Positions 1 through 27,840 of a DNA stretch of 28,896 bases are shown here, piece after piece. Within the stretch, counting starts at the first letter, position 1. Each line of letters begins with the position of its first letter. Made by a program: the position numbers and the translations under genes. Origin of the DNA: an uncultured Thermococci archaeon (GTDB lineage: Archaea; CAYQAE01; CAYVLA01); NCBI GenBank assembly GCA_964549615.1, contig CAZJVP010000086.1, forward strand, positions 1-28,896. The letters run 5' to 3'. Under the pieces are notes generated by a model, which searched no databases, was not told the DNA's origin, and was given only the letters and a program-made list of their open reading frames with translations.

Positions 1-857
1 ACGTGGTCGTCGATGAAGACGCCGTCGAAGCCGACCTCCTTGTATGCCCTCATGGCAGCGACCATGTCGGTCTGGCCGTCGTCTACGAAGGTCTCGTGGA
101 ACTTGTTCCGGGTGCCTATCACGTTCCGGAAGTGGACGTAGAAGATCTTCTTCCTTGAGCCGAAGTACCTTATGGCCTCGACCACATCGGCGCCCATTTC
201 GCTGAAGGTTCCTTGGCAGAACTCTATCCCGCTGTAGTCGCTCGGGACGATCTCGATCATCCTCTTGAAGGCATCGACGCTGCGGAAGATCCTGGCTATG
301 CCCGCAAGGGAGGGAACGGGCGGGTCATCAGGGTGGAGGGCCATCCTCACGCCCGCCTGCTCGGCCGTTGGGATGACGTTTTTGAGGAAGTAGGTGAAGT
401 TGTCCCACATCTGACGGTCGTTGAGCCTGCCCATCGATGTTACGGGGGCATTCCTTGCCAGCCTGTAGTCGAAGCTGCTAACGCGGGCGCCACCCCTCCA
501 CGGGGTGTCGGTGCAGGTCCTCCATACGCCGGTGGGGCAAAAATGGTAGCCTAGGATCGGTATGCCCGCCCTGCCCATGTTCTCCAACGTCCGGCAGAAG
601 TTCTCGATCTCCTCGTCCCGTCCTGGCTGGCCGAGCATTGCCTTAAGGTACCACGTGTGGGGTATGTTCTCGATCGCGGCGAGGTTCAGGCCGGCAGATT
701 CGACGCGGGTTCGCAACATCAGTAGCGGCGTAAATTCCCAGTAACCGTCCCCGGGGAGCGGGGGCGTGTGTACCACCAGGTCGGTGGCTCCGAACTGCTT
801 GGCGAAGACGAGCTTCTCTTCGGTGACCTCATGGATCGCTCCGTAAGCAAGCCTCAT
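1..857 (-). CDS. uxuA: Mannonate dehydratase (UxuA family), 3' end runs off the window
   Basis: Not in the ORF track; translated by hand from ATG at 857: MRLAYGAIHEVTEEKLVFAKQFGATDLVVH...LRTRVESAGLNLAAIEN...KIFYVHFRNVIGTRNKFHETFVDDGQTDMVAAMRAYKEVGFDGVFIDDH. These match UxuA motifs (HFRN, FxETF.DDG..DM, DH). Confidence 0.88.
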   Translation of the reverse strand, partial: MRLAYGAIHEVTEEKLVFAKQFGATDLVVHTPPLPGDGYWEFTPLLMLRTRVESAGLNLAAIENIPHTWYLKAMLGQPGRDEEIENFCRTLENMGRAGIPILGYHFCPTGVWRTCTDTPWRGGARVSSFDYRLARNAPVTSMGRLNDRQMWDNFTYFLKNVIPTAEQAGVRMALHPDDPPVPSLAGIARIFRSVDAFKRMIEIVPSDYSGIEFCQGTFSEMGADVVEAIRYFGSRKKIFYVHFRNVIGTRNKFHETFVDDGQTDMVAAMRAYKEVGFDGVFIDDH

Positions 858-892
858 GAACAGCCTCGACGGCTTGGATGGGCGCACGCTTT

Positions 893-906
893 CTTAAAGC
901 GTTTTG
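893..906 (-). promoter_or_regulatory. Putative archaeal BRE/TATA element for uxuA
   Basis: Minus strand reads CAAAACGC-TTTAAG, 36 nt upstream of the ATG. The same TTTAAG occurs at similar spacing upstream of the PfkB and nfeD genes. Confidence 0.55.
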
Positions 907-1234
907 GCGATCGACGCGCGACAGATGCTGCCCGCCGGCCTGGCCGAATGCTCGCGCCGAGGCTGTGGGGGCTGAGGAGCCTTGTTCTGGTGGGCATACT
1001 GCACCGCCGTAATCGAGCCGGGGGTCCAAGGTTATGACCAAGATCCGAGCAACACCAAGGTCTGGATAGATGACATACCCGGCGCCAACTTCTAGTTCCA
1101 GATACCATGCAATTCCAAAATACATAATGGTCTAGAAATCCCGTAGTAACCAAGCAGCTTGATCTCGCTTCTGACTCGGGCAAAGAAAGGTCGTGGGTGC
1201 GCGGTAGGCCAAGGAGGCCCCGGAGGCCAGAGAC

Positions 1235-1633
1235 TTGCTGGGTAGTGGTTCTCACTTATCGCAATGGCATATCGCTGCAGCAGGCATGACCGCTGCAGCA
1301 GGCATGACCCTTCTGGTACTGCGTTCAGCCCAAAGTCGAGGGTTGGAGGAGCCTGGGCAAGAAGGTTCCTTTTGCCTGGTGGATAGGATCGGGGAAGGAC
1401 TGGTCACGGGCCTGGATTTCTCGCCCGACGGCAAGCTTATCGCTGCATCCGGCCAGGGCCTTGCGGTGTACAGCTCGCGAACAGGGGAGAGGATCGTATA
1501 TCTCTCCCAACCTTGGGTTCATGAGGTGGCGTGGTCGCCCAGAGGCGACCTGATTGCCATAGCTTGTAGGGAGAACGAGACCGACCAATGCGGACATTCT
1601 CCTTCTCCGATAAGCTGGAGCCGCTCCTTGTAG
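1235..1633 (+). pseudogene. Truncated WD40/beta-propeller protein with a signal-like N-terminus (about 2 repeats only)
   Basis: VTGLDFSPDGKLIAAS and VHEVAWSPRGDLIAIA are typical WD40-like repeat cores. The ORF ends after two blades, too few for a propeller. Confidence 0.6.
1273..1308 (+). repeat. Perfect 18-bp tandem duplication (CGCTGCAGCAGGCATGAC x2)
   Basis: Read directly from the sequence; encodes AAAGMT twice in the WD40 fragment. Confidence 0.95.
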
Positions 1634-1741
1634 GCTGAGCGCACTTGCGACAGAAAGCGATCGCTCTTTACGATCGCGATCACGGATGGATGGCGCGGAT
1701 CGTACCTAGTTATTTTATGGAACGCTGGCCTATACTTACTC

Positions 1742-2470
1742 ATGCCTACCAATCCTGACAAGGTCGAATCTGCCATCGTCGAGATCCTCCGCCGCGCGAA
1801 GCGGAGGCGGTTCAACGAGCTCCTTGAAGGCCTACAGGAGATGGGCTTGGAAGTGAGCCGCCCCAAGCTTTCAAGGCGTCTCAAGAAACTGGTCGAGGCG
1901 AACGTTATAGGGAAGAGCGTGATTCCTGGCTGGCCGCCCTCGTCATATTATTGGTTGACAAGTGAGAGGGTCGAGGAGACGGCTTCATCATCCAAGCCTA
2001 CTGTTCGCCCATATAAGACTTGTGGGAGGGCTCATTGGGTTGCTGCAGGATTTCTCGGCATGGGGCTATTGATCTCGCTGGTTGGGCTCTTGTCGGCGAG
2101 CCAAAGGTGCAGTTCTCTCCAAGCAGATCTCCGCTCCAAAGAAGTTGAACTGGTTCGTCTGAGCAACGAGTTGGCAGCCACAAGAGCGACTCTTAGGCAG
2201 GTGGAGCTGAAACTCTCTTCGGAGGGAACAGCTAACCGGGCTTTTTCCGGCGAGCAGAACCTGCTAGCGGCAGGCGAGGAAAGTCCGGACAGCCTCGAGG
2301 AACTTTGTCGGAAACCCGTGAGTACGGTCATCATCAAACTTCCCGACGGACGCTTTGAGAGTCGTGCAATATTCGAAGATGGTTCTTGGGGATGGTTCGT
2401 ATTTGGCGACCCCCCCGCACCAGATTATGGAAGACTCCAAGTGAGCGTAGATGGAGGCGATAGGAGGTGA
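1742..2470 (+). CDS. Membrane-anchored winged-helix (HxlR-like) protein: wHTH, single TM helix, coiled coil, C-terminal domain
   Basis: N-terminal RRFNELLEGL...SRPKLSRRLKKLVEANVIGKSVIPGWPPSSYYWLT fits the HxlR pattern. It is followed by hydrophobic WVAAGFLGMGLLISLVGLLSA and a heptad-like segment LQADLRSKEVELVRLSNELAATRATLRQVELKL. TTTTAT at 1713-1718 suggests a leaderless start. Confidence 0.75.
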   Translation: MPTNPDKVESAIVEILRRAKRRRFNELLEGLQEMGLEVSRPKLSRRLKKLVEANVIGKSVIPGWPPSSYYWLTSERVEETASSSKPTVRPYKTCGRAHWVAAGFLGMGLLISLVGLLSASQRCSSLQADLRSKEVELVRLSNELAATRATLRQVELKLSSEGTANRAFSGEQNLLAAGEESPDSLEELCRKPVSTVIIKLPDGRFESRAIFEDGSWGWFVFGDPPAPDYGRLQVSVDGGDRR

Positions 2471-2474
2471 CAAG

Positions 2475-3176
2475 ATGAGAGAAGCTATTCCGGCGGTACT
2501 ATTTGCCCTTTTCCTTGTGTCACTGGCAGCCACAGTTCCGGCAGAGAGAACTGGAACTCAGTTCGGGTTCACCCCCATATGGAGGGATGAACCACTTGAA
2601 ATGCCAGTTTTCCCATTAGGTCGGACGACATGGTGGTTTCCCACGGATATGAACATTGGGGACGGGGGTTCGTATAGCAAGGATTCGAGCGAGATTGGGC
2701 ATGACTCCAAGAAAACCACCTCGAAGAAGGCAGAGATCTACGCTTGGGCATGGAGTCAGGATGGGGTGTGGGACTCGTCGTGGGCAGATGTTGCCATGTG
2801 GAGGGACTTCACGGTGTACTACACAACGACGGTAGAATTTGAGATAATATTCGATCTCGATACCAGCCTCTCGTATGAGGAATCCGGAGCTGTGCAGTAC
2901 GCCAACTCGTATCTGATAGTGACGGATCTCACGACGGGAGCACAGGTAGGCTCAGGTTACAGTCGATGGGATAATCCGGGCGGAGACCCGCAGCCCAGGG
3001 TGCTGAATGCATGTGGTTATCACGGTTGGTTCGATTCGGTAGCTGGACATTCCTATAGAATCTGGATGAAGTTCAAATGGGTGTCGCAGAGCAATTCGGA
3101 CGCCGCCGCCGAAGGGAATTCCTGGGGCGATCCAGCATACGTGGAGTGGGCGTACTGCTGGATTGATGTGCCGTAG
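2475..3176 (+). CDS. Secreted Trp/Tyr/Ser/Asp-rich hypothetical protein (233 aa), probably beta-rich
   Basis: Start moved to ATG 2475, which follows GGAGGTGA overlapping the upstream stop. Signal peptide MREAIPAVLFALFLVSLAATVPA. No family recognised. Confidence 0.75.
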   Translation: MREAIPAVLFALFLVSLAATVPAERTGTQFGFTPIWRDEPLEMPVFPLGRTTWWFPTDMNIGDGGSYSKDSSEIGHDSKKTTSKKAEIYAWAWSQDGVWDSSWADVAMWRDFTVYYTTTVEFEIIFDLDTSLSYEESGAVQYANSYLIVTDLTTGAQVGSGYSRWDNPGGDPQPRVLNACGYHGWFDSVAGHSYRIWMKFKWVSQSNSDAAAEGNSWGDPAYVEWAYCWIDVP

Positions 3177-3835
3177 GGCGGGCGGGTTGGACTCGATCGC
3201 AGGGTTTCGGCCCGGGAGAACGTTCTGGGCCGCGAGTGAGGATGATTGACGGCTGTCTCCCGTTTGTTGCAGCCTCCCTCGAGCTTTGGGACCGGATTGA
3301 ACCAAGTGCATGGGAACTCATGATCCTTAGGGCGGGTTACCCACACACCTTTCGCAAAAGCAAGACTTGAGAGGGAAAAAGAGACGCGCCCAACGGCATA
3401 ACCCGAGATCCACACCCAGCACGGGGCCAGTGTTGCAGCGGATCGGGTCTCTTCCTCGACACAGACCGAAACAAACTATCTGCGAGCCTTCTCCGATACC
3501 GTGGCGAAGAGAATATGCACACCGCAGGCGCTGCAGACACCGTGGACAACGTGGATATCGTCTGTTTGGGTCGGCATATATCGTTCATCTTTGCTTGAAA
3601 CCGTCTCGTCAACCCCTTGTTGTTGGGGCTTGTCGAGACCGGTGGCTGTGCCAGCGATTATGCCCAATAGACAGTCATATGTGGTACCTTGTAGGCACAA
3701 GCGGCACTGAGTCTGCCTAATGTTGCAGATCGAGGAAATCGGAGGAGTTGGACCGCGAAGAGCAAGGGCGACTCGCCTTTTGGGCGAGGGTCAAAGCGGA
3801 TCTCAGAAAGCTTTAGAAGGAAGAGACTTCATCCG

Positions 3836-6241
3836 GTGGGCCTCGGAGGAGATCGGACGAGTCCCCGTGCGAGAATCGTTAAGAACACGGCATACGTGGT
3901 AGTCCTGCTCGCTTGGGGCTCGGCGACCATGGGGCTGACGGGGATCCAGGAACCATGGGACTCAATCCTGAGCAATCCCTCCTTCTATGAGACGAACCCG
4001 CTCGACTACCTGTGGGTCGTCAACACGGTCAGCCCCGACAGGATCCCCGTCGTCGCAATGCCGCCGGAGCTGTTCAGCAGGTACGGGGACAAGGTCATCG
4101 GAAGCTTCCAGAGGCTCGTCCACGCGAGCCCCGACTACATGGAGTGGCTCCGAGCCAACTACGGAGTCAACGAGCAACAATGCTTGGACTCAGGGGATCC
4201 CCACCAGCCTTTCGCGCCGGCGAACTTCTTCGTCGTGCCCACCGAGCACAGGATAGAGTGGCACTGGCTCTTGAGCAGCAGGGCGATCGACCTCGGGGCA
4301 AGGCAGGTCATGTACGAGGAGCCCGAGTTCTGGCACGGCACGGGGTACAGCGAAGTGATGAAGCGTAAATACTGGGAGATGTACGGCGAGGAGGTGGCCT
4401 GGAAGGACCGTACCTGTACCTTCCTGCAGAGGTGGCGGATGGAGAGGCTGAAGGAGAAGGTGCTGGGGGATGCATATTCCGAGCTCTTCCGCAGGGTCAA
4501 GGAGAAGGATACCGGGGTGACCACCATAATCCCGATGCACGACATTGCTAGCTACCAGCTCGCCAAGATAACGTCCTGCTTCGTCCAAGCCATGAAGAAC
4601 CCGGACGCCGACGTCATACAGTCCCAGACCTGGGACTGGGCGCTTGAGTGGGCCGGTGACGAGAAGATCGCGGCCTACGTCGACCTCGCCTACTGGGTTT
4701 TCAGCTCCAAGTTCCGCAAAGATCTCGAGCTTTGGCTGTTGACAGACCCCGTCGATGACCCGCTCAACGTTGAGGTGCAGAACCTCAGGGACTACAGGGC
4801 GGCGGTCGATGCCGGCATCCTCCTCGGCTTCTACACCCATCACATACCCTGGCCGGCGAGCCGCATCGGCGCCATACGAAGCTCGGGTTGGACCCGCTAT
4901 GAGCAGGAGGTCACCCAGAACTTCAGGATCCATCGCTCCGGCCTGAAGTTCGGAGACTCAAGGCTGGCGCCGCAGTCCTGTCCCAAGCTTGGCTTCCTCT
5001 ACTCCCAGGCCAGGAACTATGTCACCTATGCGAGCAAGGAGACGCCGGGGCGCGACCCGCTCAGGGACGTCACGAGGTACTTCGCTGAGGATCTCCTCAG
5101 GCGCGGGCAGGAGTTCCAGGTCCTGGAGACCGAGCTCATCGATCAGCCGGGCACCCTGGATGGGCTCGCCGTCATCGTGGCGGACGGGGAGGCGGGCGGA
5201 TTCATCCCCACCAGGTCGTGTGCGGATGCCTTGGTTGAGTGGATTCGATCGGGCGGCATAGTCCTGTGGCTCGGGCATCTAGGAAGCTTCCATGGTGTGC
5301 CTGAGTACTCCTCATCATCCCTTGACTACGTGGCGGACAGGCTCGGGGTACAGCTTTCCGATGTGCGGGTGACACACCCAGGGGCGGTTAAGATCGAGCT
5401 TGAGAAGGAGGGTGGCGAGTTCCAGCTGCCGAGCGGGATCTACCTGACGGAGCCCGTCAGCTTCGTCGATGTGACGGGGGCCCAGATCCTGTACCGGCTG
5501 CCCGGTGGCAGGGTCTTTGCTTGGTCCAAAGGCTTCGGGAAGGGGAGGTTGGTCTACTTCGGATACCCCATGGCGGAGATGCGCTACAGGCCCACCGAGC
5601 ATTGGACGATCATCAGGAAGCTGCTCTCGGACCAGGGGGTCGTGCCAAGCGAGGACGGGCTCGTTCGGTTCCAAAGGACGGTCAATCAACTTGAAGACTA
5701 CGAGGTCATATGGCTGGCGCAGAAGACCGGTTCGACGAACGCAAGGATAGTCACGAGGAGCTGGGATTCGGACGCAGAAGAGGTCTTCTATGCGACGGTC
5801 AAAGCTGGCAAGGATCTGGTCGTCATGAAGACGCCTTACTTCTCGGCGTTCTCCGAGGATGCCATTCCCGTCAACACAACTTACCGGGGGAAAGTGGTCG
5901 AGATCCTGCTCGAATCAAGGGGCCGGTCTTGGACCATTGGGTCCGACGCCCCCGGGCCGGAGGCAGCTTACATCTATCTTCCCGTGCCCGAGAAGGTGGA
6001 GAAGCTGCTCATCTCGGGGGCGCAGATCGGGCCCGCTAAGATCGTCAAGGTCGATCTTCCTGAATACACCACCCGTGTCCAGATCCACTTCAAGGAAGAG
6101 TTGCCGCGCATCCCGGGTGGCACCGGACAACCGATCGGCGAAGGCCTGTCAGTGGGCATGTCCATACTGAGCGCGGGGCTCCTCGGCCTGCGCGATCGGC
6201 AGGAAAGGCAGGCTGTTGGGCGCCTTTCTACCCGGGCTTGA
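3836..6241 (+). CDS. Large secreted glycoside-hydrolase-like protein (TIM-barrel-like region, GH42-trimerisation/GATase-like domain, C-terminal hydrophobic anchor)
   Basis: Signal-like N-terminus, a YEEPEFWHGTGYSE segment, a GATase-like region (LDGLAVIVADG...ALVEWIRSGGIVLW...FGKGRLVYFG) and the tail PIGEGLSVGMSILSAGLLGLRDR. The ORF itself is solid; the family call is an inference. Confidence 0.6.
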   Translation: MGLGGDRTSPRARIVKNTAYVVVLLAWGSATMGLTGIQEPWDSILSNPSFYETNPLDYLWVVNTVSPDRIPVVAMPPELFSRYGDKVIGSFQRLVHASPDYMEWLRANYGVNEQQCLDSGDPHQPFAPANFFVVPTEHRIEWHWLLSSRAIDLGARQVMYEEPEFWHGTGYSEVMKRKYWEMYGEEVAWKDRTCTFLQRWRMERLKEKVLGDAYSELFRRVKEKDTGVTTIIPMHDIASYQLAKITSCFVQAMKNPDADVIQSQTWDWALEWAGDEKIAAYVDLAYWVFSSKFRKDLELWLLTDPVDDPLNVEVQNLRDYRAAVDAGILLGFYTHHIPWPASRIGAIRSSGWTRYEQEVTQNFRIHRSGLKFGDSRLAPQSCPKLGFLYSQARNYVTYASKETPGRDPLRDVTRYFAEDLLRRGQEFQVLETELIDQPGTLDGLAVIVADGEAGGFIPTRSCADALVEWIRSGGIVLWLGHLGSFHGVPEYSSSSLDYVADRLGVQLSDVRVTHPGAVKIELEKEGGEFQLPSGIYLTEPVSFVDVTGAQILYRLPGGRVFAWSKGFGKGRLVYFGYPMAEMRYRPTEHWTIIRKLLSDQGVVPSEDGLVRFQRTVNQLEDYEVIWLAQKTGSTNARIVTRSWDSDAEEVFYATVKAGKDLVVMKTPYFSAFSEDAIPVNTTYRGKVVEILLESRGRSWTIGSDAPGPEAAYIYLPVPEKVEKLLISGAQIGPAKIVKVDLPEYTTRVQIHFKEELPRIPGGTGQPIGEGLSVGMSILSAGLLGLRDRQERQAVGRLSTRA

Positions 6242-26596: not shown

Positions 26597-27840
26597 GGTG
26601 CTGTCCTGTCATTGGCTATCTTTCTGTCCTGCCTGTGACCGTGCTGGTTGTGTGGTCTTCCACCGGGTGGTAGATGGTTTTCCACGCGGACTTATACAGA
26701 TTTCTGTTGGTGTATCTGACCAGAAGCAGGGTTAGAAGGTTGTTCAATCCTTTCTCGGACCAGTGGGCCCACCTGTTCTTCACCCTCTTGGCAACCTCGC
26801 CCATCAGCCTCTCCATCAGGTTGACCGTGTAAGGTATCCTGACATGCTCCAGGGCCAGCCTGGCGAACACGACCATCTCCTGGACAGACCTTGACACAAA
26901 CCCGGCTGCAGAGGCACACCCCTCCGCTTTAAGCCTTGCCGCATAGATGTCCAGAGCCTTCAAGGCCTGCGTGATCCTGCGCCTCAACCAGGCTGGGTTG
27001 GGTGATAGGAGGTGTCTCTTCACAGACCTGACCAGGCGAAAGAGGATGCCTGCCAGATCCCTGACCAGTGAAAGCCTCACCTTGGTAGGTATGTGCTGGC
27101 TCTGTTTCCAGAGCTTGAAGTTGACAGCCCGGGCAACATGAAGCAGACAGAGCTGGTAGGCAGCTGTACAGCCGTGAAAGCTGGTGCGGATCTCCGGCTC
27201 AGCATCACCCACCATGACACACCTCTCCGCGGGCAGGCCCATCCTGGCCAGGTTGTGTGAGATCTCTTTCCAGGGCTTGTTCACAGAGCTTGAAAGAAGG
27301 ATCTTGTCCCCATCCTTTCCTTGGGCGATGACCACTCTGGCATCGTTCTTCCTCCCCCTGGCCGTGCTGCTGTGGGTCTTGGTTCCATCAGCCTGAAGCA
27401 GAGCGAGCCTGTCACCCTTCTTCAGCCTCCTTACCTGGCCTTGGACGTACTCCTTGTTCACCTGGGCCATGGCTGGTCCGGCTTCCTGTACGAACCTGTG
27501 GATGCTGGACCGGGCGGGAGAGATGCCTGTTGCCTGCAGGTGGGTTTCGGAGGCGTCTCGGTAGGACACCTTCACGGCTAGGTCGGCACAGCTCTGCCTG
27601 ACGTCCGGGCAGTACCTCTGATTGGTCTTCAGGCCGAGCAGTCCTAGAAGCGGGGCGTACCAACCCCCGGTATCCTTGTCACGGACCCTGCACAGCCTTA
27701 TCCTGACGGGTCCCAGCTCCGTTATGATCCACCTCTTCCTGGAGCCCCTGGAACCTTTCCGGCTGTGCCTGGATGTGTTGTTCCTCTTGTACCTGGGTCC
27801 GCACAGCCTGGTTAGGCAGTCCTCTTGTATCTTTTCCAGT
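26597..27840 (-). mobile_element. ISH6-like (Mutator/IS256-superfamily) insertion sequence, left end missing because of the adjacent insertion
   Basis: Putative terminus GGTGCTGTC at 26597, just past the transposase stop; ISH6-family ends begin with GGT. Transposase-like coding stops at 27840, where an IS66-like end starts. Confidence 0.65.
26616..27840 (-). pseudogene. ISH6/ISLre2-like DDE transposase, 5'-truncated
   Basis: DDE and CxxH motifs QADGT, VGDAE, LCLLH, NLMERL. The frame stays open upstream of the track start (LEKIQEDCLTRLCGPRYKR...RWIITELGPV...QRYCPDVR...VSYRDA), with no ATG/GTG/TTG before an in-frame TAA at 27849-27851. Confidence 0.8.

Follow-up and report, generated by a model that had tools for sequence, protein, structure and literature searches.

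A candidate transmembrane HxlR-like regulator beside an orphan secreted protein gene in one family of uncultured archaea

When a gene for a membrane-tethered DNA-binding protein is followed at once by a gene for an exported protein, do the two make up a sensor, or does the regulator head a surface-protein gene that can be gained and lost as cargo? The question is raised by two adjacent genes in the window, by which we mean the whole stretch of DNA analysed, 28,896 nucleotides and one entire contig of an archaeal genome of 3.2 Mb (G000, the own genome in what follows). The sequence-only reading of this locus had proposed a ToxRS/TcpPH-like signalling pair consisting of a tethered regulator (gene 1, protein P0001) and its secreted partner (gene 2, protein P0002). 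The features of the locus are collected in Table 1. A single contig of run X1, possibly the source sample, spans positions 800-4200 with 5 substitutions and 0 gaps.

Table 1. Features of the two-gene locus, with positions in the window
Feature	Positions	Strand	Length	Basis
Truncated WD40 fragment directly upstream of gene 1, probable remnant	1235..1633	+		Pfam WD40 E 1e-5
Promoter element: 10-bp CGTACCTAGT followed by TATA-like TTTTAT, 23 nt before ATG	1701..1718	+		conserved copies
Gene 1 (P0001), candidate transmembrane transcription regulator	1742..2470	+	242 aa	Pfam, AF2, Foldseek
HxlR-like winged helix, residues 5-72	1754..1957	+		Pfam, AF2, Foldseek YodB E 6e-4
Single transmembrane helix, ~residues 99-118, N side basic	2036..2095	+		hydropathy, flank charge
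Outer coiled coil, residues 119-166, core-position Cys123	2096..2239	+		AF2, heptads
Small C-terminal beta-meander domain, residues 187-240	2300..2461	+		AF2; alignment to P0010
Shine-Dalgarno GGAGGTGA containing the gene 1 stop	2463..2470	+		sequence; equal junction before C101 and L018 copies
Gene 2 (P0002), orphan gene for an acidic secreted protein rich in aromatics, all-beta and probably a jelly roll	2475..3176	+	233 aa	
P0002 predicted signal peptide	about 2475-2543	+		hydrophobic N-terminus ending VPA/ERT (cleavage at the slash), by eye

In the database, gene 1 is called with 35 residues fewer than the frame starting at 1742; we favour the longer frame because its promoter and start are conserved. 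The winged helix passes the Pfam HxlR cut-off marginally (23.4 bits vs 20.8, residues 12-74), and all six Pfam families found at E <=1 are HxlR/ArgR/ArsR-like or coiled coil, an OmpR/CadC-type HTH being absent among them. In the AF2 model the domain at residues 5-72 has a pLDDT mostly >90, and all three Foldseek matches at E <=0.001 are YodB (best E 6e-4). The linker behind the wing (residues 78-94) is disordered; then come a single long helix (97-166) and, with pLDDT of about 62-68, a meander of three strands (194-221). By hydropathy only, there is a single hydrophobic 19-mer, starting at residue 100 (KD 2.15), and a 19-mer of this kind is present too in all four paralogues scored. Its N-side flank carries 4 K/R and zero D/E, which suggests N-in topology. 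Behind this segment 57% of the heptad a/d positions are hydrophobic, vs 9% at other positions. The architecture that had been read from the sequence, namely an HxlR-type winged helix, one N-in transmembrane helix, a coiled coil and a small C-terminal domain, is borne out by these results.

Soluble HxlR/DUF24 proteins (YodB, HypR, QsrR, HxlR), which are small and consist of one domain, share the winged-helix fold and the wing motif with P0001 and give its best structural matches. P0001 differs from them in being anchored in the membrane, in its 242 aa with transmembrane helix and coiled coil, and in the disordered linker after the wing. The redox regulators YodB and HypR sense through an N-terminal cysteine, whereas the winged helix of P0001 is cysteine-free: the protein has cysteines only at positions 94, 123 and 189. 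Cys123 is located at the core of the coiled coil and has a counterpart, Cys120, in three paralogue copies. It may be that the transmembrane helix and the coiled coil, perhaps helped by a Cys123 disulfide, replace the helix-mediated dimerisation of the soluble HxlR proteins.

The hydrophobic N-terminus of the gene 2 product looks by eye like a signal peptide, and the final residues of the signal together with the cleavage region are identical across the three known copies. The mature protein is acidic, has no C-terminal anchor and contains 12.9% W+Y, so that in a crude set of genes it ranks second among the 15 ORFs that combine a signal with a strong SD; the export signal and the Trp/Tyr richness first noted from the sequence stand on these data. 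Profile searches gave no match in Pfam, NCBIfam or PHROG, and a sequence search of the PDB returned one weak match, a nanobody (E 0.07). The AF2 model, built on a three-sequence alignment, is all-beta with a mean pLDDT of 52 and core strands at 70-79. For this model Foldseek places CBM27 at the top (E 1e-4, TM 0.3), and VIA-align matches jelly-roll sandwiches of diverse types with rmsd 3-5 over 100-140 residues and Z 7-8.3, values up to 8.3 lying in the range that the tool itself calls common. Viral structural proteins are among the fold matches (IBDV VP2 with Z 8.3, tail fibres), and no lipocalin title occurs among the Foldseek and VIA matches listed. The beta-sandwich topology of the model is shared with CBM27, GOLD, the Tk-SP beta-jelly roll and the collagen-binding domain; sequence similarity to these modules is absent and the fold scores are in the common-arrangement range. 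P0002 is a probable jelly-roll sandwich according to this low-confidence model. The earlier hint at a glycan gains a compatible fold, with CBM27 as the top match, and a glycan-binding role is plausible at the confidence that such a model allows.

Gene 1 is an HTH-TM-outer-domain gene adjoined on the same strand by the gene of an exported protein. Its TGA lies inside GGAGGTGA, the Shine-Dalgarno sequence of gene 2, as had been proposed; a 4 nt gap separates this sequence from the gene 2 ATG at 2475, and the frames do not overlap. Coupling by a stop codon within the SD occurs here at 10 of 141 strong-SD ORFs and hence is not rare. The gene-2 copies that share it have diverged to a dS of about 1.3; the stop/SD junction is old, which counts against taking gene 2 for cargo.

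The promoter element CGTACCTAGT is 10/10 identical in seven copies, namely one in the window and two each at C101 (another contig of the own genome), in the related genome G001 and at the metagenomic locus L018. The seven descend from three promoter lineages, and the 40 nt upstream of them are merely 28-47% identical (ungapped). With <=2 mismatches allowed, the own genome has 3 sites of the element plus TATA, each of them at a regulator or gene-2 locus; no wider regulon was found, a stricter pattern matching only G000 and G001 out of five genomes. In archaeal promoters the BRE is directly beside the TATA box, and CGTACCTAGT occupies the BRE position. Spacing of the gene 1 promoter appears to be of the leaderless type. 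Judged by its sequence, the element is a candidate autoregulatory site (operator) or an unusual BRE; it has no clear inverted repeat, which counts against an operator. A second motif copy before a secreted gene was considered as an independent operator and rejected, as it belongs to a regulator copy that has been deleted and whose promoter it was.

Of 301 archaeal genomes, three have matches to the regulator family, at 7 loci in total, and the three belong to a single family; L018 is an eighth locus. Two of the loci are in genome contigs that carry the depositor's label Candidatus Hadarchaeota. The expectation that gene 1 homologues co-occur with a secreted gene holds in part: a gene-2 homologue is present at three of the eight loci and absent from five. 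Six loci appear intact, half of them with gene 2 (3/6). Two of the eight look broken (an in-frame stop at G001 C74, a 5' truncation at G002 C19), which speaks against a regulated cargo, as does the number of independent loci with gene 2, which is only two. The same is true of the finding that the full-length gene-2 copies, 3/3, follow a family regulator within about 470 bp. At G002 C19 the truncated regulator is followed by three unrelated probable secreted genes (L015:6601-10983), one of which has an internal duplication.

Two copies of gene 2 reside in the own genome; it has no match in 4 other genomes of the phylum sample, nor in 40 relatives. Among 5.8 billion proteins searched a single close relative was found, and HMMER over 1.84 billion representatives gave just P0003 and the 53-aa fragment P0011. 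Atlas feature matches for P0002 (0.90-0.93) are clusters without names, mostly from Thermoplasmatota, and we treat them as a lead only because of the HMMER outcome. A metagenome scan with the regulator alignment returned 0 of 501 candidates; its sensitivity is low, since it missed the L018 copy found afterwards. The tree of the winged helices has zero supported branches, and the outer domains of the paralogues differ or are absent. Among 387 candidates for longer proteins with the gene 1 outer domain, the window's own protein alone was recovered. The beta-meander stands alone in G003 (C42, L016:9952-10317), near a contig end, as a 121-aa protein (P0010) in which it follows a signal/anchor sequence; P0010 is 47% identical to gene 1 over 59 aa (pairwise E 1e-9). 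Gene 2 has no match in G003 (91% complete, 500 contigs).

The relation between the two genes is seen most clearly at the second locus. On C101 the order is a full-length gene 1 paralogue, a 460-bp gap, a gene-2 copy (68% identical to gene 2) and a secreted WD40 gene. The paralogue is 43% identical to gene 1 over 175 aa, has a different C-terminus and, adjacent to the gene-2 copy, is without the meander. The gap contains the second promoter copy and what is left of a gene-1-type gene, namely its first codons, with the start lost. At L018, a metagenomic orthologue, the remnant is an in-frame 26-codon ORF with a P0001-like beginning and the same stop-in-SD end. This start and junction indicate that the coupling between gene 2 and a regulator of the gene-1 type is old, and the remnant at L018 and C101 indicates that the coupled regulator was internally deleted at the second locus. 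The deletion would predate the split of G000, G001 and L018, as the remnant is common to all three. The secreted gene at C101/L018 has 19 nonsynonymous vs 30 synonymous differences (dN/dS about 0.15, p 2e-10) and has been kept under strong purifying selection after the coupled regulator's loss. In contrast, the adjoining full-length paralogue has 57 nonsynonymous vs 20 synonymous differences, with three pairwise dN/dS values of 0.64-0.95 (p 1.6e-4 for the difference in selection between the two genes). When G000 C101 is compared with G001 C86, with the indel placed by blastn, the flanks are 90-92% identical on both sides and about 727 bp with the secreted gene are missing in G001. Regulator and WD40 gene are intact there, and gene 2 finds no match anywhere in that genome (100% complete, 8% contaminated). 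An obligate form of the ToxRS/TcpPH-like pair proposed in the sequence-only reading is not supported by these results: gene 2 is at a minority of the loci (3/8), is cleanly absent in G001 and has been conserved after regulator deletion. It should be added that within G000 P0001 could act in trans for the secreted copy at C101, which counts against that copy's being independent cargo.

The second locus has two further peculiarities. The secreted WD40 beta-propeller (761-773 aa, with a hydrophobic C-terminal tail) is retained at 3/3 orthologous loci (L001:5913-8198, that is G000 C101 35912-38197; L012:8068-10389; L018:5047-7049), with dN/dS of about 0.3 in codons 1-600. The ~300 bp that separate the paralogue from the second promoter are unrelated in G000 and G001 (L001:9069-9369 vs L012:7636-7922) and are flanked by sequence that is 91% identical; this stretch is a replacement hot spot. 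The WD40 fragment of the window is just 36% identical to the C101 WD40 over 70 aa and contains a short tandem duplication of about 19 bp (1272-1309). Elsewhere in the window there are a gene for a probable secreted protein of 801 aa (3836-6241), whose C-terminal tail is hydrophobic and which is unmatched in Pfam and NCBIfam, and, near the contig end, an ORF that by eye is transposase-like (26616-27575). A non-coding stretch downstream of gene 2 (3570-3715) is shared with G000 C51 (95022-95208) at 80% over 50 bp, the C51 copy having a tandem run of GTGACT. The C51 island (L029, G000 C51 90033-95976) is bracketed by two near-identical ORFs, presumably HIT-like. It includes a broken transposase-like gene that we take to be IS91-like, together with a pair of orphan ORFs rich in W/Y, of which one has a signal peptide; a family regulator is absent from it. 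The W/Y-rich ORFs at C51 and G002 C19 have no detectable kinship to P0002 (hhalign probability 0.1 and 0.6).

On balance we find it probable that the transmembrane regulator heads a swappable surface-protein cassette, probably acting via the 10-bp element, with gene 2 as the regulated output. A regulator with a swappable surface-protein gene is likelier than an obligate sensor because in related genomes either gene is retained where its companion is lacking: gene 2 is absent in G001 and is kept at C101/L018 despite the remnant regulator. The differing or absent outer domains of the paralogues, the lone gene 1 meander in G003, the orphan W/Y-rich secreted ORFs at C51 without a regulator and the conserved promoter element favour the same reading. 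Alternatively, the locus might be a facultative archaeal co-component system, in which P0002 would attach to the outer meander of the regulator, for example by strand addition, sense a glycan and alter the regulator's dimerisation or proteolysis. Its mode of action would be that of ToxRS, with unrelated folds. We regard this as unlikely. The age of the translational coupling and the place of all three full-length secreted copies behind a family regulator agree with it, as do CBM27 as the top fold match and the fast-diverging outer domains, which recall co-component cassettes as described in the available part of PMC9214523; moreover, the anchorless P0002 would presumably be retained by a membrane partner. 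All this has to be set against the persistence of either gene without the other, the meander without winged helix in G003, where gene 2 is unmatched, the weakly constrained paralogue without meander by the C101 copy, and a type of coupling that 10 of 141 strong-SD ORFs have in common. Equally unlikely is a version in which none of the components would be related to those of ToxRS: a small exchangeable meander, presented on a coiled-coil stalk, would capture a secreted glycan-binding jelly roll. Ligand binding would then switch the HxlR-type winged helix at a BRE-overlapping operator, and paralogues would swap outer domains and partners, like fast-evolving bacterial cassettes.

Purifying selection on the winged helix between the window and C101 copies (pN 0.28, pS 0.61, p 3e-5), the invariant promoter element and a 232-codon frame that stays open in 3/3 paralogue copies (chance about 0.05 by a rough estimate) argue against a somewhat less probable account still. 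According to it the family would consist of genes under little constraint, many of them in decay, or would tether DNA to the membrane; it would not be a specific sensor, and gene 2 would merely use the promoter. It draws on the near-neutral dN/dS of the C101-type paralogue, on three remnants plus two broken copies among the loci seen, and on the GC content of 1100-3800, which at 55% vs a genome mean of 60% is among the lowest 1%. The low GC, together with the viral structural proteins matched by the jelly-roll fold, would also suit a relic of a virus or mobile element, consisting of a structural jelly-roll protein and its regulator. We hold this to be very improbable, because neither gene's alignment has a relative in viral contigs (0/65 and 0/362 candidate stretches), P0002 and P0009 are without PHROG match, the regulators match through the HTH only, gene 2 has a signal peptide and the flanking genes are cellular by Pfam (UxuA family, ABC transporter).

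If the regulator does head a swappable surface-protein gene, gene 1 would be a one-component transmembrane transcription regulator from a small family confined, among the genomes searched, to one uncultured archaeal family. The P0001 dimer may act on the 10-bp element, which lies where its own promoter, apparently a leaderless one, would have the BRE, and by acting there would control itself and the gene translated behind. Gene 2 would be the regulated output, an exported jelly roll that according to the model is a probable binder of glycan or surface polymer with a function of its own, and may be gained or lost independently of the regulator. As to the stimulus, the outer part might sense the state of the envelope, or proteolysis might be the trigger.

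How far does this arrangement resemble known systems? Membrane-bound regulators, HxlR ones included, are already catalogued: in the available part of Demey et al. 2023 (PMC10269533) the census of TTRs counts 1,384 archaeal ones, spread over 367 of the 404 species, and lists 294 TTRs that contain an HxlR domain; similar archaeal entries may be among these. P0001 falls under the TTR definition given there, a DNA-binding domain plus one transmembrane helix, and differs from TTRs at large, as covered in that part, in its long outer coiled coil, its exchangeable C-terminal domain and its lineage-restricted family. ArnR is the sole archaeal entry in the available portion of the review's table, where no associated protein is listed for it. 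According to the accessible text of PMC6396743, ArnR/ArnR1 of Sulfolobus acidocaldarius are, like P0001, archaeal membrane-bound HTH regulators, and their target is surface structures; ArnR has an HTH-HAMP-sensor order with two C-terminal transmembrane helices, whereas P0001 has one central transmembrane helix followed by the coiled coil. With the co-component systems ToxR/ToxS, TcpP/TcpH and VtrA/VtrC, as far as the available text of Kinch et al. 2022 (PMC9214523) describes them, the locus shares the HTH-TM-small outer domain layout, an exported protein encoded directly downstream and fast-evolving outer parts. It differs, on the same text, in an HxlR-like instead of a CadC-like HTH, in the outer coiled coil, and in a partner that looks cleavable and is modelled, at low confidence (pLDDT 52), as a jelly roll, ToxS-type partners being lipocalin-like. 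The outer domain of the regulators in those systems is an alpha-beta sandwich; the P0001 model has a coiled coil and, at modest confidence (pLDDT 62-68), a three-strand meander. Gene 1 and gene 2 are not co-retained, whereas the co-component cassettes of that text are obligate. The analogy to ToxRS stands for gene layout and fails for HTH type and co-retention. The word 'archaea' is absent from the available text of PMC9214523, and our literature searches showed neither an archaeal co-component pair nor an account of the P0001 family. The regulator is a lineage-restricted form of a known class, probably not described before, and its neighbour codes for an orphan secreted protein.

If P0002 does not bind P0001, the locus holds a lineage-restricted regulator of surface cargo and an orphan jelly-roll protein, which is of modest interest; if binding is true, it would be a co-component system outside bacteria. 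Almost nothing is known of what archaeal membrane-bound regulators sense, and the P0001 family is a compact test case, in which the promoter element does not vary, the outer part is modular and nature supplies variants with one or the other gene deleted.
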